In this document: positions 9,135 to 24,451 of the stretch, in pieces
Layout: each line of letters starts with the position of its first letter
Numbering within the stretch: the first letter of the stretch is position 1
Origin: Armatimonadota bacterium
Lineage (GTDB): Bacteria > Armatimonadota > Armatimonadia > Armatimonadales > Armatimonadaceae
Assembly: GCA_043754515.1 (NCBI GenBank)
Contig: JAYUUO010000098.1
Span: forward strand, 1 to 43,719
Reading direction: 5' to 3'
Length of the DNA stretch: 43,719 nucleotides
Position numbers and translations under genes: made by a program
Notes under the pieces: model-generated
Seen by the model: only the letters and a program-made list of their open reading frames with translations
The model's database searches: none
What the model was told of the DNA's origin: nothing

Positions 9135-10079
9135 ATGAACACAAACAACACGGATCGAAAACAGGCGGGGCGTCGGCGGTTCCTAAAACGGTTCGGCATC
9201 GGGCTTGGTGTCTGCGCCGGGATATACACCGAGGCGCGGTACATCGAGCCGCGCGTGCTCGACGTGTCGCGCCACGTCGCCTACTTGCCCGAGTTACCCC
9301 TCGCGCTCGATGGCCTACTCGTCGCGCACCTATCTGACTTGCACCATGGGCCGATCACGCCGGTGGAGACTATCCGCGACGCCGTCACCGCCGTGGTGGA
9401 GGCAAGCCCCGGCGTCGTGATGCTGACTGGCGATTTCATCCACAACCACATTGAGCAGGCCGCCGATCTAGCGACAATACTCGGGCCACTACATGCCGTG
9501 CCGCTCGGACTATTTGCCTGTCTCGGGAACCACGACTACCGCGACAGAACAGGCGATCTGGTCGCGATGGCGTTACTCAAAAGCGGAATCGCGGTGTTAC
9601 GTAACGAAAGCCACGTCGCCACTTCCGGCCTGTCCGTAGTCGGCATTGAGGATACGACGCGGGGTCTGCCGGACCCGCTACGTGCGCTCGCGGGAGTTCC
9701 GGCAGACGCGGCGTGCGTGTTTCTGACACACAACCCGGTCGGGATTTGGGGTGCAACCCGGCGCAGTTGCCTCGCGCTGTCGGGACATACGCACGGCGGG
9801 CAGGTGCGTATCCCCGGCATGCCGATTCGCCGACCGGTCGGAATGGAAGGTTTTCCCCTGCTCGAAGGCTGGGGCGCGTTCGACCGGGCGCGGCTGTTCA
9901 TCAGTCGCGGCGTTGCCATGATGGGTATTCCGCTCCGGTTCCGGTGTCCCCCGGAAGTCGCGTTGATCACCCTGAAGCGCGGGAACGGGCAGTCCGGCAA
10001 GTCGCCGGACGCCGTCGGTCGCGCCGCCGTCGGCGTGAAGCAGTTCGGTAGGGACGTCATCCACCGCCGCTACTTCTAG
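9135..10079 (+). CDS. calcineurin-like metallophosphoesterase (YkuE-like) with twin-arginine-like leader
   Basis: SDLH, TGDF, GNHD, THNP, SGHTHGGQ; RRRFLK at N-terminus. Confidence 0.93.
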   Translation: MNTNNTDRKQAGRRRFLKRFGIGLGVCAGIYTEARYIEPRVLDVSRHVAYLPELPLALDGLLVAHLSDLHHGPITPVETIRDAVTAVVEASPGVVMLTGDFIHNHIEQAADLATILGPLHAVPLGLFACLGNHDYRDRTGDLVAMALLKSGIAVLRNESHVATSGLSVVGIEDTTRGLPDPLRALAGVPADAACVFLTHNPVGIWGATRRSCLALSGHTHGGQVRIPGMPIRRPVGMEGFPLLEGWGAFDRARLFISRGVAMMGIPLRFRCPPEVALITLKRGNGQSGKSPDAVGRAAVGVKQFGRDVIHRRYF

Positions 10080-10091
10080 ATTCGCGGGTCG

Positions 10092-10751
10092 CTAATCAAA
10101 CGGCAGGAGCGGCGGGGGTAGCACCGCGCCCGCCAGTAGGCACCGGGTGAAATACTCGTCGGTTCCGGCGAAGTCGGCGGGTGCTTCCGGCAGAGGAAAG
10201 AGTGCCGGAGAAACCCACACGGGCGGCGCGGCTATGTTCAGCGCGGCGGCGAGTCCTTTAAGCCGCTCCCCTTCCGCCAGAGTCGCAACATGGAGCGCGA
10301 CCGCGTACGGCACTAGAGGAAGTGATCCCGGTACCAGCACCTCCAGCGACGGGTATTTGCCCGCTCCGTACTCCGCCCAGGTACATTCCTTCTCCGCCGC
10401 ATCGGTTACCGGAATGAAGTCGTCCCGGTGCGCCCAGCGTTTCGTGTTGAAACGCAGGAGTGCCACGCTGGGCATCGCGAGAACAGCAACACGGTCGAAC
10501 GCGATCAGTACATGAGAGTAACCTTTCGTCCGCTTGTCGCGCAACAGGGGCGTGATAGGAACAGGGGAAAGGTGGACGAAATCCGCGAGTCCGAGCCGCG
10601 TCTTGCGCCGGATCGCCGACGGGCGAGGCAGGATCGGGTGTTTATCCCGACCGAGCCGCGCCGCCGAAAAAATCGCGCCCGTCTGGAGCAGGTATGGCAC
10701 GTAGAACAGCGGCGTGACGTGCCATAAACAGATAGTATCGGGTCCGCTCAC
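10092..10751 (-). CDS. DarT-like (DUF4433) ADP-ribosyltransferase family protein
   Basis: LWHVT, G.I.S, RR, DFV....P..PLL and LEVLV..LP parallel DarT YHIT, RR, DYV, PRSPML and AEFLV; GTG start overlaps the upstream TGA (GTGA). Confidence 0.7.
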   Translation of the reverse strand: MSGPDTICLWHVTPLFYVPYLLQTGAIFSAARLGRDKHPILPRPSAIRRKTRLGLADFVHLSPVPITPLLRDKRTKGYSHVLIAFDRVAVLAMPSVALLRFNTKRWAHRDDFIPVTDAAEKECTWAEYGAGKYPSLEVLVPGSLPLVPYAVALHVATLAEGERLKGLAAALNIAAPPVWVSPALFPLPEAPADFAGTDEYFTRCLLAGAVLPPPLLPFD

Positions 10752-11542
10752 GCCTTCGCCGCGTCGTCGCCTACAGTCTGCGCGCGCTCCAGCGGGGCGT
10801 CGAGCAGATCGTCCGGTTCGGGCACCCAAGAGGCAGGCGTGATCGCGTGGTACAGCGCGTGCGGGTGCCCGCCCCGGTACGCCCAGCCCTGGTCGCCGTA
10901 GCTGAAGTGCCAATATTCGCCGGGGTAGTTGGTGATGCCGACCGTCGCGAGCGTGTCCCGGACCAGGAGTCGGCGGGTTCGGGCGACGTCGGTCAGACCT
11001 GGCGCGGCGAACGGGAAGCCGCGCGGGTCTTCCGTTCCGTACGGCGCGGTAACATCCACGACGACCTTGCCCACGTCGGTCAGCACGAGATCGAACGCCG
11101 CGCCCGTGGTGTGCGGCGGCGGGACTTTCTTATCCGTCACGGGGGCCGTGTATCGGTTGACGATACGTCGCATCGTCGTGTCGCTCCACTCCGGGTGCTT
11201 CTCGCGCCACCATTCCCACGCCGCGCGATACATCCGCGTCTGTATATGAGGTGCTCGCCAACCCTCCACGATGGCGAAGCGGTACTCCGGCGGAAGACGC
11301 TCGCTCGCGTCGCGCAGTTTCTCGGCGACCGATTCGCGTAGCAGGGTTTCGTAGCGGTAGCGGAACCGCCCCGGCTCGCGCCGGAGATGGGGACCGATTG
11401 CGAGGTAGTCCATCAGCGGTTCACCGCATTCACGGATCGGGATGAGACGCAGGGCGGTCACCGGCTCCCAAATAGACGGGACACGTTTTGTAACCTTCCC
11501 GATGCCCGTGCCTTCGTTGCTAATTAGAGTCTCGTTTTCCAA
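10748..11542 (-). CDS. D-alanyl-D-alanine dipeptidase (peptidase M15D/VanX-like)
   Basis: EGWR, PPPHTTGAAFDL, EYWHFSYGD; exact start uncertain. Confidence 0.9.
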   Translation of the reverse strand: MENETLISNEGTGIGKVTKRVPSIWEPVTALRLIPIRECGEPLMDYLAIGPHLRREPGRFRYRYETLLRESVAEKLRDASERLPPEYRFAIVEGWRAPHIQTRMYRAAWEWWREKHPEWSDTTMRRIVNRYTAPVTDKKVPPPHTTGAAFDLVLTDVGKVVVDVTAPYGTEDPRGFPFAAPGLTDVARTRRLLVRDTLATVGITNYPGEYWHFSYGDQGWAYRGGHPHALYHAITPASWVPEPDDLLDAPLERAQTVGDDAAKA

Positions 11543-13031
11543 GCCGCAGACCTTTCGGGATCAGTAACCGATCCAGTAACTCGAAGCCGCCCTGCACCAA
11601 TAGCGCGAGTATGGCGGCGGGGATCGCGCCCTGTAGAATCGTCGCGTTGTCGTTGAGCGACAAACCGCTGACGATCGGCTCGCCAAGTCCGCCCGCGCCG
11701 ATGAGTGCCGCGATGGTCGCCGTGCCGACATTGATGATCGCGCTGGTTTTGATCCCCGCCAGGATCGAGCGCGACGCCATCGGGAGGTAGATGCGCGTCA
11801 GCCGCGCCCCCGGCTCCAGGCCCAGCGCGAACGCCGCCTCCCGCAAAGAGGGCGGAATATCGTGCAAGCCGGTAGCGGTGTTGCGCACGATCGGGAGCAG
11901 GCTATACAAAAACAGCGCGACGACGGCGGTGGTCGGGCCGATACCGAGCGACGGCACCAGGAACGCGAACAAGGCGAGCGACGGGATCGTCTGGATGACA
12001 CTGACCACGCCCAGGATGGTTTTCCCGACCGGGCCGGGAAGACTCGCGGCGATCCCGAGAGGCACGCCGACCGCGACCGCGAGCAACAACGAAATACCGA
12101 CCAGAAGCAGATGTTGACCCGTCCAGCGCAATATCTTCAAGGGCACGGACTCCGCGCCCCGCGCCGCCACCGCCCGCGCCCCGTCGCCGAAGTAGGGCGC
12201 GGCGGCTTGCGTGTAGTCCTTCGTCTTCTCCGCTTCGGCATTGAGGCGCGTCATCTTCGCTTCATTGATCGTGCCCTCGAGCTTGCGAAGCGATGTCAGA
12301 ACGGCGGGCGGCGCGTTTAGCCGATAGAGAAACACGGCGCGGTACTGCGGGAAGAAGTGTCGGTCGTCGTTCAGCACCACGAAGTCGTTGACCGCGATCC
12401 CGGCGTCGGTAGAGTAGGCGTCCGTGACGTCAATCTGCCCGGCGATCAGTGCCTTGTATGCGATGCCGTGTTCGATCCCGCGCGGCGTCACCGCTTCCAA
12501 ACCGTACGCCGCGCTGAGCGGCTTCCAGCCGTCCTTGCGCCCGATGAACTCGTTAGAAAGGCTGGCGCGCAGACTCCCGGCGATTTTCCGCAGGTCGCTA
12601 ATCGCGTGAACCCCGCGCTTTTCGGCGTCCGCGCGGCGCATTACGAGGGCGTACGTGTCATCGAACCCGAGGTCGCCGCCCATCCCGATCCCGAGCGGCT
12701 TGAGCGCGGCACGCATCTGCTCCGGCGTCTGCTTCCCCTTCGCCTTCAGTAACTCCTCGCCGATGGTGCCGGTGTACTCCGGGTAGAGCGTGATCGAGCC
12801 GCTCTTCAGGGCTTCCCATAGAATACCGGTCGCGCCAATTCCTTGCTTGTGTTCGGCTTTAATCCCGTCGTTCGCCAGATTTTCGCGCGCGATTTCGCCG
12901 AGCACGTACGACTCCGTAAACTTCTTGGAGCCGATGACAACGGGCGGCGCGGCGGACGAAATCACGGCGGTGAAGCACGAGACGGCGGCAACGCACAGTC
13001 CGCGAAGGAGAGAAGGCTGGAATAGCTTCAA
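11520..13031 (-). CDS. osmoprotectant/quaternary-amine ABC transporter, fused substrate-binding (N) and permease (C) protein
   Basis: Signal peptide, GSK.FTE, YPEYTGT, DAYSTD, FFPQY; QTIPSLAL, EAA..LG loop, IGAGGLG. Confidence 0.93.
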   Translation of the reverse strand: MKLFQPSLLRGLCVAAVSCFTAVISSAAPPVVIGSKKFTESYVLGEIARENLANDGIKAEHKQGIGATGILWEALKSGSITLYPEYTGTIGEELLKAKGKQTPEQMRAALKPLGIGMGGDLGFDDTYALVMRRADAEKRGVHAISDLRKIAGSLRASLSNEFIGRKDGWKPLSAAYGLEAVTPRGIEHGIAYKALIAGQIDVTDAYSTDAGIAVNDFVVLNDDRHFFPQYRAVFLYRLNAPPAVLTSLRKLEGTINEAKMTRLNAEAEKTKDYTQAAAPYFGDGARAVAARGAESVPLKILRWTGQHLLLVGISLLLAVAVGVPLGIAASLPGPVGKTILGVVSVIQTIPSLALFAFLVPSLGIGPTTAVVALFLYSLLPIVRNTATGLHDIPPSLREAAFALGLEPGARLTRIYLPMASRSILAGIKTSAIINVGTATIAALIGAGGLGEPIVSGLSLNDNATILQGAIPAAILALLVQGGFELLDRLLIPKGLRLGKRDSN

Positions 13032-13771
13032 AACGCGGCGAGACTCCGCTGGGCGTGAAGGAACTCGGTAATATATGGGGTCGCGGGGCGGACGCGCAGG
13101 TCGGCCAGTGTCCCCTGCTGCACCACGCGCCCGCTTTGCATCAGGACGATGCGGTCGGCGAGGTAAGCCGCCTCTCCGAGATCGTGAGTGACCAGAACCA
13201 CGGTCTGTTTGAGTTCGGCGCAGATGCGCTTCAGGTCAGTCTGAAGCGCGGCGCGTACCAGCGGGTCGAGCGCGCCGAGCGGTTCGTCGAGGAGCAGGAC
13301 CTCGGGCTTCAGCATCAGGGCGCGCATCAAGCCGACGCGTTGCCGCTGTCCACCCGATAACTGGTCTGGGTAGTGCTTCGTCGCGCCCGCCGGGAACCGG
13401 GTTAGTTCGCACAGTTCCGCGAAGCGTGCGCGGCCCTCCGACCGGGGCACTTTAAGATGGTCGGCGAGTACCAGCACGTTATTCTCGGCGGTCATGTGCG
13501 GAAATAAGCCGCCATCTTGGATCACGTAGCCCATACGGCGACGGAGCATCAAGCCGTTGTCCGCACCAACCACCGCGCCGTCGAAAAGCACCCGTCCACG
13601 CGTCGCCGGAACCGACCCAATGATAAGCCGCAGAATGGTGGTCTTGCCGCAACCGCTCGCGCCGAGGAGCGCGGTCACCTTCCCCGTCTCGAACGCCAGA
13701 TCGGTCGGGTGCAAGGCGGCGGTTGCCCCATAGTCCTTGGACGCGCCCCGCAGTTCGATCAGATCCGACAT
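13028..13771 (-). CDS. ABC transporter ATP-binding protein (OpuA/OsmV-like)
   Basis: GASGCGKT, LSGGQRQR, LLLDEP, VTHD; start MSDL with TATAAT 9 nt upstream. Confidence 0.95.
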   Translation of the reverse strand: MSDLIELRGASKDYGATAALHPTDLAFETGKVTALLGASGCGKTTILRLIIGSVPATRGRVLFDGAVVGADNGLMLRRRMGYVIQDGGLFPHMTAENNVLVLADHLKVPRSEGRARFAELCELTRFPAGATKHYPDQLSGGQRQRVGLMRALMLKPEVLLLDEPLGALDPLVRAALQTDLKRICAELKQTVVLVTHDLGEAAYLADRIVLMQSGRVVQQGTLADLRVRPATPYITEFLHAQRSLAAF

Positions 13772-13934: not shown

Positions 13935-16900
13935 ATGACATCAACCGGACGGTGGGTAATTGGCGGCGCGTTAACGGCACTCACGGTGACGTTTGCCGTT
14001 GGTATGGCGCGCGTGCAGACGAGGAAACACCCCGGCGCGGGAGGAATAGCGATGGCGGCGACGGCGATAGCGGATGACGGTACCCCGGGACTGCGGTTCC
14101 GGCTCGGGGAGGGCAAGTCCTTGCTCGGTGACGCGGGCGAAGCGGTGCCACTTGGCGAGACGTCCCTCCTCTCCGACTCCGATGCCGACCGGGTGCTGAA
14201 CCGGCTGAAAGCGGTCGGGGTACAGCCGGGCGATACGAAGGACTTCGCCCTGCGCGAGGGTTCGCTCCCGCCCCCGCGTGCCGGGCAGACTATCGCGCTC
14301 GCGTTCCCCCCGCCTGCGACGGAGGGTAGGCCCCCCACCGTGGAGACAGGCGCGCTTCAGGTGCGCCGCGTACAGCCGGAAGGAGACGTGCCGCTCGCCG
14401 ACCGCGTTTCGGTGACATTCTCGCAACCCATGATCGCGGTCACCTCGCAGGAGGAAGCCGCGCAAACCGTTCCCGTTAAGCTAGAGCCGTCGGTTCCAGG
14501 CAAGTGGCGCTGGCTGGGGACGCAGACCCTGATCTTCGACGCTGGTTCCGGCAAGCGGCTCCCGATGGCGACGAGCTACAAGATCAACATCCCCGCCGGA
14601 ACGAAGTCGGCGAACGGTGGCATTCTCGCGGACGCCCGAACTGTGACGTTCCAGACGCCGACGGTTCGGCTCCTCGACCACTACCCGGACGGGAACCAGC
14701 CGCAAGGGCGCGAGCCGCTTATATGGCTCGCGTTCGACCAAAAAGTAGACCCCGATGCGGTACTTCAGACCATCAAAATGCGAGCGGGGACTAAAAAAGT
14801 GGCACTGCGCCGCGCGACCGACGCCGAAGTCGCGAAAGCAAAAGAGCTACACTGGCGCGGAAACACTCTCGCCGAACGGACTGTCGCGTGCAAGCCTGCC
14901 GAACCGCTCCCGACTGGCACTACCATAACGGTCGAGGTCGGACCGGGAACGCCTTCGGCGGAAGGCAACCGCAAGACGGACGCGGAGCAGAACTTTTCCT
15001 TCCAAACCTACGGGCCTCTCCAAATCACTAACACCTACGGCAACGGCAACCCGCCGGGCACGCCGTGGACGATCACCTTCAATAACGGACTCGACGAGGA
15101 AGCATTCGACCCGGCCACTGTGACCATCTCTCCCGCCATTCCTGGCGTCCAGATAACCGCGCAAAGCCAGTCGCTCAGCATCTACGGGGCGACGAAAGGG
15201 CAGACAACTTACACCGTCACGTTGCCCGCCAGCCTGAAGGACATGTTCGGGCAGACGCTCGGCAAGACGGAGAAGAAAACGTTCAAGGTAGGGCCAGCGA
15301 TGCCACAGGTCACCGGACCCGATCAGATGTTCTCCGTCTGCGACCCATCCGCTCCCCCCCGCGCCGTCTTTCGTAGCGTGAATACCCCATCAGTTCGGGT
15401 GCAAATGTACGCCGTCGGCGAGAACGATTGGGCAGGTTGGCTGAAGTATATCAGCCGGGGGCGTCCCGATAAGGGCACACCACCTGGTCGGCTGGTTTCC
15501 GAAACCACGGTCGCCTTGAAGACGGAGACAGACGCCTGGGGCGAAACAAGCGTCCCGCTCGGTGCCGCCCTCAAGAACGGCCATGGGAACGTGATCCTGC
15601 ACTGGGTATCCCCGGTACGCCGGAATAAGTACGAGGAACCGGACCAGGGGGTCATCTGGTTCCAGGCAACAAAGCTAGGATTGATGGCGCAACGCGACGC
15701 TACGGATTTGTACGCCTGGGTGACGGATCTCGCCACCGGGAGACCTGTGAGCGGCGCGGCGGTTGAGTTGATCGGCGGGTCGCAAAAAGGCACCACCGGT
15801 GCCGACGGCTTGATTAAGCTACCGCTCAGCGATACACCCGGAGCTAAACTAGTGGCTCGGCATGGCGACGCCACGGCGTTCCTGCCCGCCACCCAATGGG
15901 TGTACGATGGCAACCAGGGCTGGACGAGACGGGTGCAGAGCGACGCCACGCGCTGGTTTATTTTCGACGACCGAAAGTTGTACCGCCCTGGCGAGACGGC
16001 ACGCGTCAAGGGGTGGATCCGCGTGCAGAAGGCGGGTAAGAACGGCGACCTGGTGATCCCCTCGGAAATGACGAGCGTGGACTGGCACCTATACGACGCA
16101 CGCGGGAACGAAGTCCGGAAGGGTACCGCGCCTGTTAACGCGTGGGCTGGCTTCGACATCGCCCTCGAACTGCCGAAGACAATGAACCTCGGTCAAGCGC
16201 GTCTACAGGTCGCCGGCACCGAGCATTATATCAACGTGCAGGAGTTCCGCCGCCCCGAGTTCGAGGTGTCGGCGAAGAACGAAAGCGCGGGGCCGCACGT
16301 CGTCGCCGACCCGAAGGGCGCGGATCTATCCGTTACGGCGAAGTACTACGCGGGCGGACCGCTCCCGAACACGCCGGTCACCTGGAACGTTTCCGCGTCG
16401 CCAACCTCCTACACGCCGCCCGGACGCGGGGAGTTCACGTTCGGCAAATGGACGCCGTGGTGGGGCGCGATCTATAGAAGTGAAGAAGGCGATGGGATCT
16501 ACTCGCGCTCCAGCCGGTTCAGCCGCGTCGGCGACAATCCCCAGTCCAAGACCTATGCCGGGAAGACGGGCGGGGATGGGACGCACCATCTGCATCTCGA
16601 TTTCGACGCGGTTCACCCGGCGCAACCTTACACGGTCAGCGCGGAGGCGGTGCTTCAGGATGTGAACCGCCAGACCCGCGCCGCGTCCGCATCCCTGATC
16701 GTACACCCGTCGGATCGCTATGTGGGTTTACGGGGCAAGAACCTGTTCGTCGAGAAGGGGCAGAAACTCGCCATCGAGACCATCGTCTGCGACATTGACG
16801 GCAAAACAGACGCGGGGCGCGAGGTTCAGTTCCACGCGGCACGCAAGCAATGGGGTTATGTGAAGGGCCGCTGGCGCGAAAAGGAAGTGGACGTACAGGA

Positions 16901-19900
16901 CTGGACCACGAACTCCGGCAAGGACTCGGTCTCAACCGAATTCACGCCCGGCGAAGGCGGGCAGTGGACGGTGAAGGCGACGGTGCGCGACGACAAGGAG
17001 CGGGTAAACGAGTCGGAACTCACGCTCTGGGTGTCGGGCGGCGACATGGCGCGAAGCAAACAGCGCGGGTTAGGTCAGGAAGCGGCGACGCTGATCCCGA
17101 ACGCGAGGGAGTATAAAGCGGGCGAGACGGCAACGATACTGGTACAGTCGCCGTTCCCCAACGCCGAGGGACTCGCGACTATCGTGCATGACGGGATCGT
17201 GCATATCGAGCACTTCACCATGCGCGGCTCGACCTACTCGCTGAAGGTCCCTATCGCGGAAACGTTCCTCCCCAGGGTCGGCGTACAGGTCGAACTGGTC
17301 GGCGCGGCGGCGCGCACTGGCGATGACGGCAAGGCGATTCCGGGAATCGCGCCGCGCCCCGCGTTCGCGAGCGGGCACCTCGACCTGTCGGTGCCACCGA
17401 CCACAAGGCGATTAACGGTTACCGCCGTCCCTGCCGACGCCGCGCTGTCACCGGGCGGTAGCACTACGGTGACGGTGACAGTTAAAGATGCGAGCGGCAA
17501 GCCGGTCGCGGGTGCGGAAGCAGCGGTAGTGGTCGTGGACGAGTCGGTGCTGGCTCTCGCGGGCTGGAACCTGGGCGATCCGCTGGCGGCGTTCTACTCG
17601 GGGCGCGAGACTAGCGTCGAGACGACACACTTGCGGCAGTTCGTGGTGCTAGAAGACCCGGCTAAGGTGCAAGCACTTGCGTACGGGGCAGCGAGTGCCG
17701 GTGGGGCGCCGGGTGGTCTCATGAGTAAGTCTGCTAAGATGAAAAGTAGTGACTCGTCCCTCCAGATGGATATGGCAGCTCCCGTACCCGCCGCGCCGAT
17801 GATGGCTCGCGCCATAAGTGCCGAGGCAGTCGCTGGCTCTGCGGCCACTCTGGCGCAACAGCCCGACACGCCGATCGCGCTACGCACCAACTTCGACGCG
17901 CTTGCGGAGTTCGCGCCGTCGGTGAAAACCGACGCCGACGGCACTGCCCGCGTGCCGGTGAAGTTACCCGATAACCTGACGCGCTATCGGATCGTGGTGG
18001 TCGCGGTGGCGGGCGCGAAGCAGATCGGGCACGGCGAAGCCGCGCTGACCGCGCGGCTCCCGCTGATGGCCCGCCCGTCCGCGCCGCGCTTCCTTAACTT
18101 CGGCGACAAGTTCGAGTTACCGATCGTGCTACAAAACCAGACCGACGCCGCGATGACCGTAGATGTCGCGGTGCGCGGAACCAACCTCTCGTTCACCAAA
18201 ACGCGCGGACAGCGCGTTACGGTGAAGGCGAACGACCGGATCGAGGTGCGGTTCCCCGCCGAAGCGGTGCTACCCGGAACCGCGCGTTTCCAGGTCGCGG
18301 CGGTATCGGGTGACCGTGCCGACGCCGCCGAACTGTCACTACCGGTATGGACGCCCGCGACCACGGAAGCGTTCGCAACCTACGGAGTGATTGACAAGGG
18401 GGCGATTGTGCAGCCGGTGCGCGCGCCCGGCGAGGTAGTACCGCAGTTCGGCGGGCTGGAAGTGACGACCAGTTCGACCGCGCTTCAGGAACTCACGGAC
18501 GCCATGATCTACCTGCAAAACTACCCGTACGGTTGCGCGGAGCAGATCGCATCGCGCGTACTGGCGACCGCCGCGCTGAAGGATGTCCTAGCGGCATTCA
18601 AAACGGAGGAGATGCCAAAGCCCGAGGCGATGGCGGCGGCGATGGGCCGCGACCTAGCCCGCCTCGCCGAGATGCAGAATGACGACGGCGGATTCGGGTT
18701 CTGGACACGCTACACGAAGCAGTACCCTTACCTCGGCGTTCACGTCGCGCACGCGCTGGTTCGGGCGAAGCAGAAAGGCTTCGCGGTGCCGGACCAGTTA
18801 TATAATCGCTCGATGGACTACCTCAAGAACATCGAAAGCAAGTTCGACAACGATTACCATCCGGCGACACGCCGCATGATCACTGCCTACGCCCTGTATG
18901 TGCGGCACCTGGCGGGCGACACTGATACTGCTAGGGCGCGGAAACTGCTCAAGGAGGACACGCTCGACGGTCTCGGCCCCGAGACGGTCGGGTGGCTCCT
19001 GAACATCCTCGCGGGTGACCCGGTGATGGCACCGGCGCGGACGTGGCTGAACAACAAGGCGACGGAAACAGCGGGCGCGGCGCACTTCACGTTCTCCTAC
19101 CGGGACGATGCCTATCTCGTGCTCGCCTCCGACCGGCGCGCGGACGCCATCGTGCTCGACGCGCTGATCGCGGATCAGCCGAAGAACGATCTGATCCCCA
19201 AACTCGTGCGCGGCTTGCTCGACGGGCGCAAGCGCGGTTCGTGGTCGGGGACGCAGGAGAACACATTCGTTCTGCTCGCGCTGGACCGCTACTTCCGCAC
19301 CTACGAGGGGGTCACGCCCGACTTCGCGGCGCGGCTCTGGCTGGGAGACAAGTTCGCGGGCGAGGGCAAGTTCCAGGGCCGTAGCACAAACCGGGTCGAG
19401 TCGCAAATCCCGATGGCGTACCTCGCGAAGACGTCCGGCACGCAGAACCTGACGATTGACAAGGTCGGCGTGGGACGACTCTATTACCGCGTCGGGATGC
19501 GCTACGCCCCGAAGAGCCTCGACCTGAAGCCCGCTGATTACGGATTCACGGTGAAGCGGGTTTACGAGGCGATTGACAAGCCCGCCGATGTCCGCCATGA
19601 GGCGGACGGCTCGTGGGTGATTCACGCGGGCGCGAAGGTGCGGGTGCGCCTTTCGATGATCGCGACAACGCGCCGTTACCACGTCGCACTGACCGATCCG
19701 CTCCCCGCGGGGTTTGAGGCGGTCAACTCCGAACTGCAAGGGACGGAGAGTACCGCGCGGGACACCCAGGGGACAGGTGACGGCACTAAGTACATTTACA
19801 ACTGGTGGTGGGGTCACTGGTGGGAACACGAGAACCTGCGCGATGAGCGGGTCGAAGCGTTCACGGCCTACCTCTGGGAGGGCGCATACGAGTACGTCTA

Positions 19901-20015
19901 CGTCTGCCGCGCCACGACGCCGGGGCAGTTCGTCGTCCCGCCCGCTAAAGCCGAGGAAATGTACTCGCCGGAGACATTCGGCAGAAGCGGCACGGACAAG
20001 GTGCGGGTAGAGTAG
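13935..20015 (+). CDS. bacterial alpha-2-macroglobulin family protein with N-terminal Ig-like domains
   Basis: DDRKLYRPGE, EFRRPEF, VVDESVL, LPDNLT.YR, thioester YPYGCAEQ, DPLPAGFE, EEMYSPE.FGRS. Confidence 0.95.
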   Translation: MTSTGRWVIGGALTALTVTFAVGMARVQTRKHPGAGGIAMAATAIADDGTPGLRFRLGEGKSLLGDAGEAVPLGETSLLSDSDADRVLNRLKAVGVQPGDTKDFALREGSLPPPRAGQTIALAFPPPATEGRPPTVETGALQVRRVQPEGDVPLADRVSVTFSQPMIAVTSQEEAAQTVPVKLEPSVPGKWRWLGTQTLIFDAGSGKRLPMATSYKINIPAGTKSANGGILADARTVTFQTPTVRLLDHYPDGNQPQGREPLIWLAFDQKVDPDAVLQTIKMRAGTKKVALRRATDAEVAKAKELHWRGNTLAERTVACKPAEPLPTGTTITVEVGPGTPSAEGNRKTDAEQNFSFQTYGPLQITNTYGNGNPPGTPWTITFNNGLDEEAFDPATVTISPAIPGVQITAQSQSLSIYGATKGQTTYTVTLPASLKDMFGQTLGKTEKKTFKVGPAMPQVTGPDQMFSVCDPSAPPRAVFRSVNTPSVRVQMYAVGENDWAGWLKYISRGRPDKGTPPGRLVSETTVALKTETDAWGETSVPLGAALKNGHGNVILHWVSPVRRNKYEEPDQGVIWFQATKLGLMAQRDATDLYAWVTDLATGRPVSGAAVELIGGSQKGTTGADGLIKLPLSDTPGAKLVARHGDATAFLPATQWVYDGNQGWTRRVQSDATRWFIFDDRKLYRPGETARVKGWIRVQKAGKNGDLVIPSEMTSVDWHLYDARGNEVRKGTAPVNAWAGFDIALELPKTMNLGQARLQVAGTEHYINVQEFRRPEFEVSAKNESAGPHVVADPKGADLSVTAKYYAGGPLPNTPVTWNVSASPTSYTPPGRGEFTFGKWTPWWGAIYRSEEGDGIYSRSSRFSRVGDNPQSKTYAGKTGGDGTHHLHLDFDAVHPAQPYTVSAEAVLQDVNRQTRAASASLIVHPSDRYVGLRGKNLFVEKGQKLAIETIVCDIDGKTDAGREVQFHAARKQWGYVKGRWREKEVDVQDWTTNSGKDSVSTEFTPGEGGQWTVKATVRDDKERVNESELTLWVSGGDMARSKQRGLGQEAATLIPNAREYKAGETATILVQSPFPNAEGLATIVHDGIVHIEHFTMRGSTYSLKVPIAETFLPRVGVQVELVGAAARTGDDGKAIPGIAPRPAFASGHLDLSVPPTTRRLTVTAVPADAALSPGGSTTVTVTVKDASGKPVAGAEAAVVVVDESVLALAGWNLGDPLAAFYSGRETSVETTHLRQFVVLEDPAKVQALAYGAASAGGAPGGLMSKSAKMKSSDSSLQMDMAAPVPAAPMMARAISAEAVAGSAATLAQQPDTPIALRTNFDALAEFAPSVKTDADGTARVPVKLPDNLTRYRIVVVAVAGAKQIGHGEAALTARLPLMARPSAPRFLNFGDKFELPIVLQNQTDAAMTVDVAVRGTNLSFTKTRGQRVTVKANDRIEVRFPAEAVLPGTARFQVAAVSGDRADAAELSLPVWTPATTEAFATYGVIDKGAIVQPVRAPGEVVPQFGGLEVTTSSTALQELTDAMIYLQNYPYGCAEQIASRVLATAALKDVLAAFKTEEMPKPEAMAAAMGRDLARLAEMQNDDGGFGFWTRYTKQYPYLGVHVAHALVRAKQKGFAVPDQLYNRSMDYLKNIESKFDNDYHPATRRMITAYALYVRHLAGDTDTARARKLLKEDTLDGLGPETVGWLLNILAGDPVMAPARTWLNNKATETAGAAHFTFSYRDDAYLVLASDRRADAIVLDALIADQPKNDLIPKLVRGLLDGRKRGSWSGTQENTFVLLALDRYFRTYEGVTPDFAARLWLGDKFAGEGKFQGRSTNRVESQIPMAYLAKTSGTQNLTIDKVGVGRLYYRVGMRYAPKSLDLKPADYGFTVKRVYEAIDKPADVRHEADGSWVIHAGAKVRVRLSMIATTRRYHVALTDPLPAGFEAVNSELQGTESTARDTQGTGDGTKYIYNWWWGHWWEHENLRDERVEAFTAYLWEGAYEYVYVCRATTPGQFVVPPAKAEEMYSPETFGRSGTDKVRVE

Positions 20016-22121: not shown

Positions 22122-23450
22122 TCAGCGGGCGCAACGAAGGCCGAGGAAGCCCTGGCGATACGTCGGCACATACCAGTTGCGAAAGGCCGAGCGCAGGTTA
22201 GGGGCACCCGTGGCCCAAGAACCGCCGCGACAGACGAAGTGCTTCCCGTCCATTGAGTCTTTGCTATACCCGTCGTAAGGAAAGGCGCGGAATCCGGGGT
22301 ATGGAAGGAACAACGATGCGGTCCATTCCCATACGCCACCCGCCATATCAAGTAGTCCGAGTGCGCTCTTCCCGGCGGGATGGGTGCCGACCGGTGCCGG
22401 ATGGTCGGCTTCCAGACCGAACGCCGCGCGGGTCGCGTCCGGTTCGGCGTCTCCCCATGGATAGACGCGGGTGTCGCCGGTCGCCGGGTCGAACGTCGCG
22501 GCGTACTCCCATTCGGCCTCGGTCGGGAGGCGTTTATTCGCCCAGCGGGCGTAGGCGTTCGCCTCGTACCAGCCGATCCCGCAGACCGGTTCATCGGCGA
22601 CCAGTTCACGCAGTCCGTTTAAGCCGATGGCTTGGAATGTTGCGGCACCGCCCTTCGCGCCGGTTGCGTGCCAGTACTCGGGGTGCGTAACCGCGCTCTC
22701 CTGGCACCAACGCCAGCCGCCATCGCACCACAACTCGGGCCGGCGGTAGCCGCCTCCAGCGATGAAGGCGAGCCAATCGGCATTTGTTACGGGCGTTTCG
22801 TCCATCTCGAACGGCAACACGGTAACCAGATGCGGGTCATGCTCGTTGTCGTAGCCGTGCGGGTCCGGCGAACCCATGCGAAACGTGCCGCCAGGAAGCG
22901 CGATCATCCGAACGGGCGTAGTAGCAACGGCCCGACGCGTGCTGACGGGCTTCACAGGGGGAGCCTTGCCTGTGATGCTCGACTTTCGGAGCAGTTGGCG
23001 CAACTCCGAAATCGTCTCCTGATGCTGGTACTCGTGCCGGAGCGCGAACTCCCAAGCATAGCCGTCCGCGAGGAGCGGGTCTGAATTCGAGAGATCTGCC
23101 GTGGCGAGAGCGGCGAGCGTAAGTTCGCGGGTGCGATTCAGGTACGCGATAAGTCCCGCGCGCCCCGGTAAGCGGGTCCGGTTTTCCTTGTCGTTCTCCG
23201 ACACGTTCGCGAACAGGAAGCCGAGCGCGTCGTCGGGCGAGGGGTGGCCAAGTGCCTTTTCGCAAGCCCAATAAACTTCCGTGCGCCCGATGTGACCGAA
23301 GTGCCAGCCGATAGGGCTGTAAAAATCGTGGACGCGCAGGGGCAATTGAGCGTCCGTCACGGTCTCGAGTAGCCGGAAGGTTCGTGCGCGCACACTTTCG
23401 AGCGACGTTATCAGGACACGTCGCCTTTCCGACGCGGCGTCCGAAGCCAT
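22122..23450 (-). CDS. egtB: ergothioneine biosynthesis sulfoxide synthase (DinB_2 + FGE-sulfatase domains)
   Basis: SPIGWHFGH, HEYQHQE iron ligands, RLPTEAEWE, PYDGYS, FRNWY; TGATG overlap with egtD. Confidence 0.9.
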   Translation of the reverse strand: MASDAASERRRVLITSLESVRARTFRLLETVTDAQLPLRVHDFYSPIGWHFGHIGRTEVYWACEKALGHPSPDDALGFLFANVSENDKENRTRLPGRAGLIAYLNRTRELTLAALATADLSNSDPLLADGYAWEFALRHEYQHQETISELRQLLRKSSITGKAPPVKPVSTRRAVATTPVRMIALPGGTFRMGSPDPHGYDNEHDPHLVTVLPFEMDETPVTNADWLAFIAGGGYRRPELWCDGGWRWCQESAVTHPEYWHATGAKGGAATFQAIGLNGLRELVADEPVCGIGWYEANAYARWANKRLPTEAEWEYAATFDPATGDTRVYPWGDAEPDATRAAFGLEADHPAPVGTHPAGKSALGLLDMAGGVWEWTASLFLPYPGFRAFPYDGYSKDSMDGKHFVCRGGSWATGAPNLRSAFRNWYVPTYRQGFLGLRCAR

Positions 23451-24451
23451 CAGAAACTCGCCCTTCCGGGGGCGGGACGGAGTAGCGCGAGCGTAAACCA
23501 TTCGTCCGCGTCGCTCCATCGGTGTTCGACACACAGTCCCGCCGTCGCGCTTAGATCGCCGAACGACCCGGGCGTATATTTATGGCTGTTCTCGGTGTGT
23601 ATCCTCTCACCCGCCGCGAACGCGTACTGCTTATCGCCGATTCGCACTTCCTGCGCCGTGTCGCTGACGAGCCACATCTCGATGCGTGAACGCTCCTGGA
23701 TGAACGGGGCGGCGTGTGTCCACCGGTCGGTATCGAAGTCGGCACCGAGTTCGCGATTGATTCGCGACAGCAGATTCTTGTTGAACGCGGCGGTCACCCC
23801 GGCGGAGTCGTTGTAAGCGGCGTGGAGAGCACGGACGTCTTTAACCCGGTCCAGGCCGACGAGTAGTCGGTCAGCCGGGCGCATTTGGAGCCGCAGATTG
23901 TGTAGCAATGAGATCGCGTCATCAAACTCGAAGTTGCCTATGTTGCCGCCGAGGAACACGAAGAGTCGTGGCGCGTCCGGCTCAGGTAGGGAGCGCAACC
24001 CCTCGCGGTATTCGGCAGCGATGGCGAGGATGGATAGACACGGGTATGTCTCCAGAAGGGCCCGCGCTGACTGCTCCAGAAACGCGCCGGAAATGTCGAT
24101 CGGGATGTACTGGAGCGTTCGCTGGCGGCGGAGTGCCGCATCAATCAACAAACGCGTCTTGCTCGAACTGCCGCTCCCGAGTTCGATCAGCACCAGCGAC
24201 CGCGCACCCGTCGCGGCGAGGATCTCATCCGCGTGCTTAGCGAGGATCGTCCTCTCGGTGCGCGTCGCGTAGTACTCGGGCAGGTCGCATATCTTCTCGA
24301 AAAGGGCGGAACCCGCCTCGTCATAGAAAAAGCGGCACGGCAGGTGCTTCCGCGTGGCGGAAAGCCCGATCGCGACCGCCTCCGCCAACGTCTCCCCATT
24401 CGCCGAGGCGGGAGCGGTTATCATATTCAGATCGGAGGAGTTCACGGGCAC
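23450..24451 (-). CDS. egtD: L-histidine N-alpha-methyltransferase
   Basis: K.LP..FFYD..GS.LF..IC..PEYY.TR, ELGSG, AYND..GVTAAFN.N, RIEM, IHTENSHKY. Confidence 0.95.
   Translation of the reverse strand: MPVNSSDLNMITAPASANGETLAEAVAIGLSATRKHLPCRFFYDEAGSALFEKICDLPEYYATRTERTILAKHADEILAATGARSLVLIELGSGSSSKTRLLIDAALRRQRTLQYIPIDISGAFLEQSARALLETYPCLSILAIAAEYREGLRSLPEPDAPRLFVFLGGNIGNFEFDDAISLLHNLRLQMRPADRLLVGLDRVKDVRALHAAYNDSAGVTAAFNKNLLSRINRELGADFDTDRWTHAAPFIQERSRIEMWLVSDTAQEVRIGDKQYAFAAGERIHTENSHKYTPGSFGDLSATAGLCVEHRWSDADEWFTLALLRPAPGRASF

Follow-up and report, generated by a model that had tools for sequence, protein, structure and literature searches.

The subject of this study is a gene on the reverse strand (10092..10751) of a 43,719-nucleotide stretch from an Armatimonadota bacterium (contig JAYUUO010000098.1 of assembly GCA_043754515.1; this whole stretch is hereafter called the window). 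We found that its 219-aa product is predicted to adopt the fold of the DNA-modifying ADP-ribosyltransferase (ART) DarT, and that the gene is a maintained, vertically kept, near-core gene of Armatimonadales with no antitoxin gene beside it. In the literature examined, every DarT is accompanied by a hydrolase antitoxin, as these enzymes are poisonous to the DNA of their own cell. We proposed, with a confidence that falls slightly short of even, that the protein works as a gated, NAD-dependent transferase of ADP-ribose to nucleic acids and would hardly touch ordinary host DNA.

The protein itself matched nothing in Pfam, PADLOC or NCBIfam, and its identity as a DarT was based on structure search, profile comparison, ESM Atlas and weak matches of family members to PF14487. 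A total of 35 homologues besides the query were collected, nearly all of 213-228 aa, and the family alignment (A1) comprised the query and 33 of them, with two fragments excluded. Using the predicted model (predicted local distance difference test score [pLDDT] 92; predicted template-modelling score [pTM] 0.89), the top eight Foldseek rows were all DarT (E 3e-8 to 1e-4, template-modelling [TM] score 0.56-0.61), and VIA-align returned seven DarT entries at Z scores of 14.5-16.5 (root-mean-square deviation 2.5-3.5 over 165-176 residues), with the next row at 7.4. Tpt1/KptA proteins were the next structural neighbours, with Z scores of 5.4-7.1 and just 83-106 residues aligned. ESM Atlas gave a score of 0.94 with 10 of 10 top matches to DarT, and the family profile matched a profile of 21 canonical DarTs (probability 97.9, E 6e-13) but DarT1 only weakly (probability 7.2). 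Searches of PDB sequences with the family profiles A1 and A3 gave no DarT match. The DUF4433 family (PF14487), against which the first-pass annotation had suggested a check, did not match the query; it was matched weakly by 24 of the 34 family members, and the orthologue in genome G040 scored 27.8, above the Pfam gathering score of 22.5 bits.

We mapped the active site through profile alignments to PDB chains rather than through superposed coordinates, using the key DarT1 and DarT2 residues given in PMC11543638 and PMC9967889; the register at residues 69-73 and 102-104 is uncertain by one or two residues. The NAD-ribose His/Thr places are kept (H11 in 34/34 members, codon 10719-10721; T13 in 31/34), and the catalytic Arg place (R51/R52) aligns to R49 (10605-10607), which is invariant in the family, although its column is not kept in the sister family described below. 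The catalytic Glu place (E160/E152) corresponds to E137 (10341-10343), which was found in all 34 aligned members and in 30 of 31 genome copies. Thus, the DarT-type fold and the retained Glu and Arg claimed in the first pass were both supported. Besides H11, R49, L69 (10545-10547) and E137, the residues invariant in 34/34 members are R43, H60, D72, K73, H80, N102 (10446-10448), K104, W106 and C204, and these nine are specific to the family. In contrast with these retained positions, the surroundings of nicotinamide appear to be rebuilt. According to the profile alignment, Tyr71 has been lost and is now Ser62 (10566-10568), as in DarT1 Ser63, and Met78/Met71 is now L69 or L70; there is no aromatic residue at the Phe18 or Phe72 places, the former being V, T or A at position 12, and the Asn19/Asn23 place is occupied by Tyr or His. 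Met71/Met78 and the nicotinamide-pocket aromatics are described as important in DarT1/DarT2 (PMC11543638; PMC9967889). At the base-locking His119/Asn104 position, N102 and K104 are both invariant and the alignments disagree on which is equivalent; we abandoned the idea that N102 marks a guanine-specific enzyme of the DarT1 type, as the DarT2-type enzyme of Mycobacterium tuberculosis (7yk3) also has Asn there.

In the model, the part covered by the DarT chains is residues 1-188 (10188..10751), and residues 189-219 (10092..10187) therefore constitute an extension. This C-terminal extension, noted in the first pass, is present and conserved, with a helix at 195-207 carrying Y200 and C204 followed by PPPxLPFD, and the helix and the FD are common to the family and its sister. 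The host single-stranded DNA-binding protein (SSB) ends in DDPFAE, and we considered mimicry of this tail by the LPFD end; it was retained as no more than a weak lead, since the Pro is not conserved and the sister family ends in FDRV.

The absence of a partner was consistent across relatives. Pfam analysis of 124 of the 125 neighbours picked detected no macrodomain, NADAR or ARH, and six-frame probes (DarG2 macrodomain, YbiA-type NADAR, DarG1 and ARH) gave no match in any of 35 stretches, namely 34 loci, 31 of them with more than 1 kb on both sides, and the window. In contrast, the control canonical DarT loci of the same phylum had an antitoxin gene nearby in 25/25 cases (24 macrodomain and one DarG1); 23 of the 25 matched an independent DarG probe, the 24 matched a macrodomain profile partly built from the control loci themselves, and L145 was excluded from the controls as an orthologue of the query. 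Hence the lack of an adjacent antitoxin claimed for the window extends to all 35 loci, and the homologues are not consistently paired with darG. Small open reading frames flanking the gene in Capsulimonadaceae were considered as antitoxins and rejected, being membrane-type and lineage-limited. Elsewhere in the genomes, general macrodomains occurred in 46/48 carriers and 3/5 noncarriers, NADAR in 36/48 carriers and 0/5 noncarriers (the five being one genus), and a DarG2-type macrodomain at E<1e-50 in 6/53 Armatimonadales genomes. Genome G000 holds four macrodomains, two NADAR and about seven ARH genes, with no match to the DarG1 probe, and G079 (95% complete) matched neither Macro nor NADAR. 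Erasers are thus usually present, though none strictly tracks the gene, so that the genome search for macrodomain and NADAR genes proposed in the first pass found such genes in most carriers and no strict association.

Several features of these erasers were observed in passing. Genome G000 has a stand-alone DarG2-type macrodomain with an NFPTK motif (contig C213, L037:1426-1902) and no PF14487 DarT. In the regions C122:11500-12470 and C244:4327-5212 of this genome, a second NADAR has, by eye, a TAG in frame and continues into a stretch resembling cytidine deaminase, and one ARH gene is broken as well. All six DarG1 proteins behind DarT1 (L147-L149, L151-L153) have Q-x-[S/D/N]-[L/I/F]-F at or near the C-terminus, which resembles the sliding-clamp-binding motif and might recruit the eraser to replication forks.

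The gene was matched in 48 of 401 genomes of the phylum, which all belong to two families within a single order, and in 0/348 elsewhere; by kinship, the window's own assembly is placed in this group too. Within Armatimonadales it is found in 57/63 genomes, as a single copy apart from contig breaks and one frameshift, and five of the six misses belong to one small-genome genus. Median dN/dS (nonsynonymous to synonymous substitution rates) was about 0.28 (134 usable of 465 pairs, dS 0.02-1.5; L028, L029, L031 and L033, with partial or frameshifted matches, were omitted), as expected under purifying selection. The gene tree separates the two host families, and the guanine-plus-cytosine (GC) content of the gene is at or above that of its flanks (median +0.03, 26 loci), compared with -0.057 for the sister family (18 loci). 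There was no match in phage records, viral contigs or plasmids, the last probed with the sister query. These results support the domestication suggested in the first pass, and because of the dN/dS of 0.28 and the retention in 57/63 genomes, the possibility it had raised of a mere remnant was ruled out. The family accounts for 34 of 35 genome loci, all but one labelled Armatimonadota, and the 35th locus belongs to the sister family. The contig of L024, labelled Janthinobacterium lividum, has a Capsulimonadaceae gene order and nests among Capsulimonadaceae in the tree; it is probably mis-binned.

A sensitive search reached this second family, of about 240 aa and 252 proteins, the named ones from Proteobacteria and Poribacteria. 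It matched A1 by hhalign (probability 99.7, E 1e-25) and shares PLHY, K-x-x-x-G-[YF]-x-H, N, E and the terminal helix-FD with the Armatimonadales family, while D72 was not found; its model was also DarT-like in the Atlas (TM 0.63-0.65). An LG+G4 tree of 41 rows places the two families as sisters (98/90 and 100/99); their joint branch stands apart from DarT1 plus DarT2 (100/100), a branch that received 98 in a quick mixture tree of 84 rows; in the latter, the sister family is nested inside the Armatimonadales group with weak support. Together, the two families form a third DarT branch, and the two trees disagree on the direction of transfer.

The sister family travels in a different setting. 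Nucleoside monophosphate (NMP)-kinase and kinase/adenylosuccinate-synthetase-like genes follow it at 50/77 loci, and at 37 of the 44 with at least 1 kb downstream. The cassette (L092:6001-8958 and 49 other loci) consists of the DarT-like ART, an optional NMP kinase of about 190 aa, and an NMP-kinase/PurZ-type synthetase fusion of about 560 aa, which has Ser at the PurA Asp13 place and Asp at the nucleotide-specificity place. Gaps between the ART and these genes were -4 to 23 nt in the 15 loci checked, and the ART and the synthetase co-vary (Mantel rho 0.66, 0/2000 permutations, 21 loci chosen for holding both). The Ser, present in 32/32 motifs, is a PurZ signature (PMC12884076); the synthetases scored 193-197 on the NCBIfam PurZ model, whose cut-off is 300, and higher on archaeal-type PurA. 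Only one NADAR and no macrodomain was found among the 77 loci. Neighbours of the cassette include Kiwa (L076), a SIR2-short pAgo with NADAR and a type IV restriction enzyme (L078), Schlafen (L073), DUF3644 (L066, L070) and a HEPN-nucleotidyltransferase (L077). The cassette is mobile, lies in defence islands and has a GC content below that of its flanks.

Taken together, this DarT branch occurs twice without DarG, once beside nucleotide-modifying enzymes and once alone as a near-core gene, and the simplest common cause would be an enzyme that spares ordinary DNA unless gated. In the gated transferase that we propose, H11/T13, R49 and E137 would hold NAD and carry out the transfer as their DarT counterparts do, and the rebuilt nicotinamide pocket (Ser for Tyr71, Leu for Met78/Met71, the Phe18 and Phe72 aromatics gone) would keep basal activity low, with the packed C-terminal extension possibly acting as an additional brake. 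Stray ADP-ribose marks would be cleared in trans by general hydrolases, and the enzyme would fire only upon a substrate or signal from phage infection or from DNA or nucleotide stress. Since the companions of the sister clade are a PurZ-type synthetase and kinases rather than DarG, the ancestral gate may have been tied to an unusual purine nucleotide.

Several observations weigh against this proposal. Near-core, single-copy retention among housekeeping genes is unlike that of phage-defence genes, which makes a phage trigger doubtful; of the facts left unexplained, the core-like distribution is the foremost, and it speaks against a role purely in defence. The gene lies near housekeeping genes, behind an ABC-F ATPase at 22/34 loci and divergent from topA at 5/34. 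In the small-genome genus g6 it was matched in 2/7 genomes, being otherwise absent, incomplete or divergent. No kinase/PurZ-type genes were found near it at 35 loci, and of the 53 Armatimonadales genomes 51 matched only through housekeeping PurA and two had no match; given the long branch of the sister family, its gate may not hold for the present one. Concerning catalysis, alanine at Met71 kills DarT1 (PMC11543638), and Leu at this place may, from the alignment, mean a dead or redirected enzyme. In the orthologue at L023 (6001-6639), the codon of the catalytic Glu is GCC (Ala), against GAA in two close relatives; either the allele is genuinely inactive or the assembly is wrong here.

A housekeeping modifier, acting constitutively and at a low rate on RNA ends, free nucleotides or a replication or repair protein, and with a function resembling that of Tpt1/KptA, or growth control by chromosomal DarTG, more than defence, would suit a near-core, ameliorated gene with topA and thymidine kinase in its neighbourhoods, as well as the structural proximity of Tpt1/KptA and the eraser-rich genome G000. 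We nevertheless consider it unlikely, as the Tpt1 match falls far below that of DarT, no single neighbour is common to the whole order, and the sister clade lies in defence islands. A more specific reading is that the enzyme modifies 2-aminoadenine in DNA or 2-aminoadenine-type nucleotides, which are absent from the uninfected host. The sister synthetase and kinases would then supply the mark on invading DNA or an ART-activating signal, and Armatimonadales would have kept the ART alone as a weapon or sensor against phages with 2-aminoadenine genomes; no antitoxin would be needed, because host DNA lacks this base. The translational coupling and co-variation in the cassette, the PurZ signature of its synthetase, and the match of S62 to Ser63 of DarT1, which attacks the purine N2 amine (PMC11543638), are in its favour. 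Yet the Asn at the base-reading place is not diagnostic, being present in 7yk3 too, the profile is nearer to DarT2-type enzymes than to DarT1, D72 is not in the sister, the synthetase product is only a putative 2-aminoadenine nucleotide, and a rare phage type poorly explains core retention, so that this reading seems distinctly improbable.

The changes at Met78/Met71 and at all three known nicotinamide-stacking aromatic places, the Tyr or His at Asn19/Asn23 and the Glu-to-Ala relative could instead mean that catalysis is lost or almost lost and that this DarT persists as a regulator binding NAD, nucleotides or single-stranded DNA. Invariant E137, R49 and H11, with the Glu also kept in the sister, make us doubt this strongly. 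Slightly less likely still is an ordinary DarT toxin held in check by an antitoxin from another part of the genome. The distribution of NADAR between carriers and the single noncarrier genus, the ability of non-DarT NADARs to remove guanine-ADP-ribose (PMC11543638) and the lone DarG2-type macrodomain of G000 point that way, but 12/48 carriers have no NADAR match, including the near-complete G166, G121 and G316, DarG2-type macrodomains are rare in the order, and G079 matched neither eraser; we regard this explanation as quite implausible. There is, finally, next to no likelihood that the protein is a partner of the osmoprotectant-type ABC transporter/dipeptidase operon upstream of it, or a decaying remnant. 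The GTGA overlap with the dipeptidase-like gene makes co-translation plausible in the window's genome, but the dipeptidase, OpuAC and phosphoesterase neighbours were found beside the gene in the window alone (1/35 loci), and the transporter/dipeptidase neighbours are not beside it even in the same-genus G270 and G386. Conversely, G361 and G381 keep the OpuAC-permease and dipeptidase genes without the ART in the 1.5 kb downstream, with the ART on other contigs. Thus, the link to this operon is incidental, and the coupling claimed in the first pass was not upheld.

The layout first described for the locus was confirmed in sequence: the gene starts with a GTG overlapping the TGA of the dipeptidase-like gene (GTGA), LEVLV and RR are residues 136-140 and 48-49, and 12 bp (10080-10091) separate its stop from that of the convergent gene. 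An open reading frame finder gave a longer alternative start, TTG at 10913; the GTG was favoured, since most full-length homologues have 213-228 aa and their alignments begin around residues 5-9. A promoter and terminator scan at the locus found nothing beyond chance level, and a search of sequencing runs gave two that are probably DNA and no RNA run. Upstream on the same strand are the M15 D-Ala-D-Ala dipeptidase-like gene (10748..11542; PF01427, E 5e-12; start codon uncertain), a fused OpuAC-type binding protein/permease gene (11520..13031; PF04069 and PF00528) and an ABC transporter ATPase gene (13028..13771; PF00005), all merely local neighbours. The forward-strand YaeI/LpxG-like metallophosphoesterase gene (9135..10079) bounds the downstream side and is not conserved at other loci. 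At those loci, the gene is divergent from topA at L003, L005, L008, L014 and L031, a thymidine kinase gene lies downstream in two (L004, L006), and housekeeping purA lies 3-6 kb away in G026, G184 and G226 (one genus). Divergent from the transporter operon of the window is a gene for a 2026-aa bacterial alpha-2-macroglobulin (13935-20015; Pfam). The fused OpuAC-permease transporter (11520-13771) also lies 8 kb from egtB/egtD-like genes (22122-24451; PF03781 and PF12867, PF10017), and it may carry ergothioneine or hercynine, as EgtUV does.

With an antitoxin-free near-core DarT branch and its PurZ-linked sister, one can ask directly how a toxin that modifies DNA is brought under control, and whether DNA containing 2-aminoadenine is sensed or attacked by bacteria. 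If the gated reading is true, a base- or signal-gated DNA ART would be a labelling tool; even if the enzyme is dead or plainly housekeeping, it represents a core gene family that lacks annotation and escapes Pfam.

The protein is DarT-like by fold and catalytic residues, yet it falls outside DarTG by antitoxin, mobility and the Met and aromatic positions. With DarT2 of DarTG2, a thymidine-specific single-stranded DNA ART (PF14487; 7omv-7on0, 7yk3, 7omu), it shares the fold over residues 1-188 (Z scores 14.6-16.5), the H13/T15, R51 and E160 places and an S/T-P-hydrophobic-L motif. It differs in its 12-20% identity, in the Tyr71-to-Ser, Met78-to-Leu and Asn19-to-Tyr/His changes, in the 30-residue C-terminal extension, in the lack of DarG, in its separate branch, and in being near-core where DarT2 is patchy (PF14487 matches in 25/201 genomes of the phylum). 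DarT1 of DarTG1, a guanine-N2 single-stranded DNA ART with a NADAR antitoxin (8baq), likewise has the same fold (Z score 14.5), and its H17/T19, Ser63, Glu152 and probably Asn104 places are kept; Phe18, Met71 and Phe72 are lost, the profile match is weak, and DarG1 was not found nearby or in G000. The DarT1 Asp54 place is uncertain, with Lys in the query and Asp in 16/34 members. The DarHTG/DarG3 variant also places DarT in a noncanonical setting, but retains an antitoxin resembling ARH, together with a helicase (PMC13069673), whereas no ARH lies near the present gene. We found no account of a third DarT branch or of a DarT-PurZ link in the literature searched, which was mainly open-access main texts, whose supplements may list such proteins as DUF4433. 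Kongming, which reportedly uses dITP signalling through a base-modifying enzyme, kinases and an NAD-using effector, and the phage PurZ/PurZ0 pathways are analogies to the sister cassette with different enzymes, and the window's genome has no such cassette. The RNA 2'-phosphotransferase Tpt1/KptA is likewise a housekeeping, antitoxin-free protein with an ART fold, but its two-domain architecture is not matched by the present protein, to which DarT is by far the better fit.

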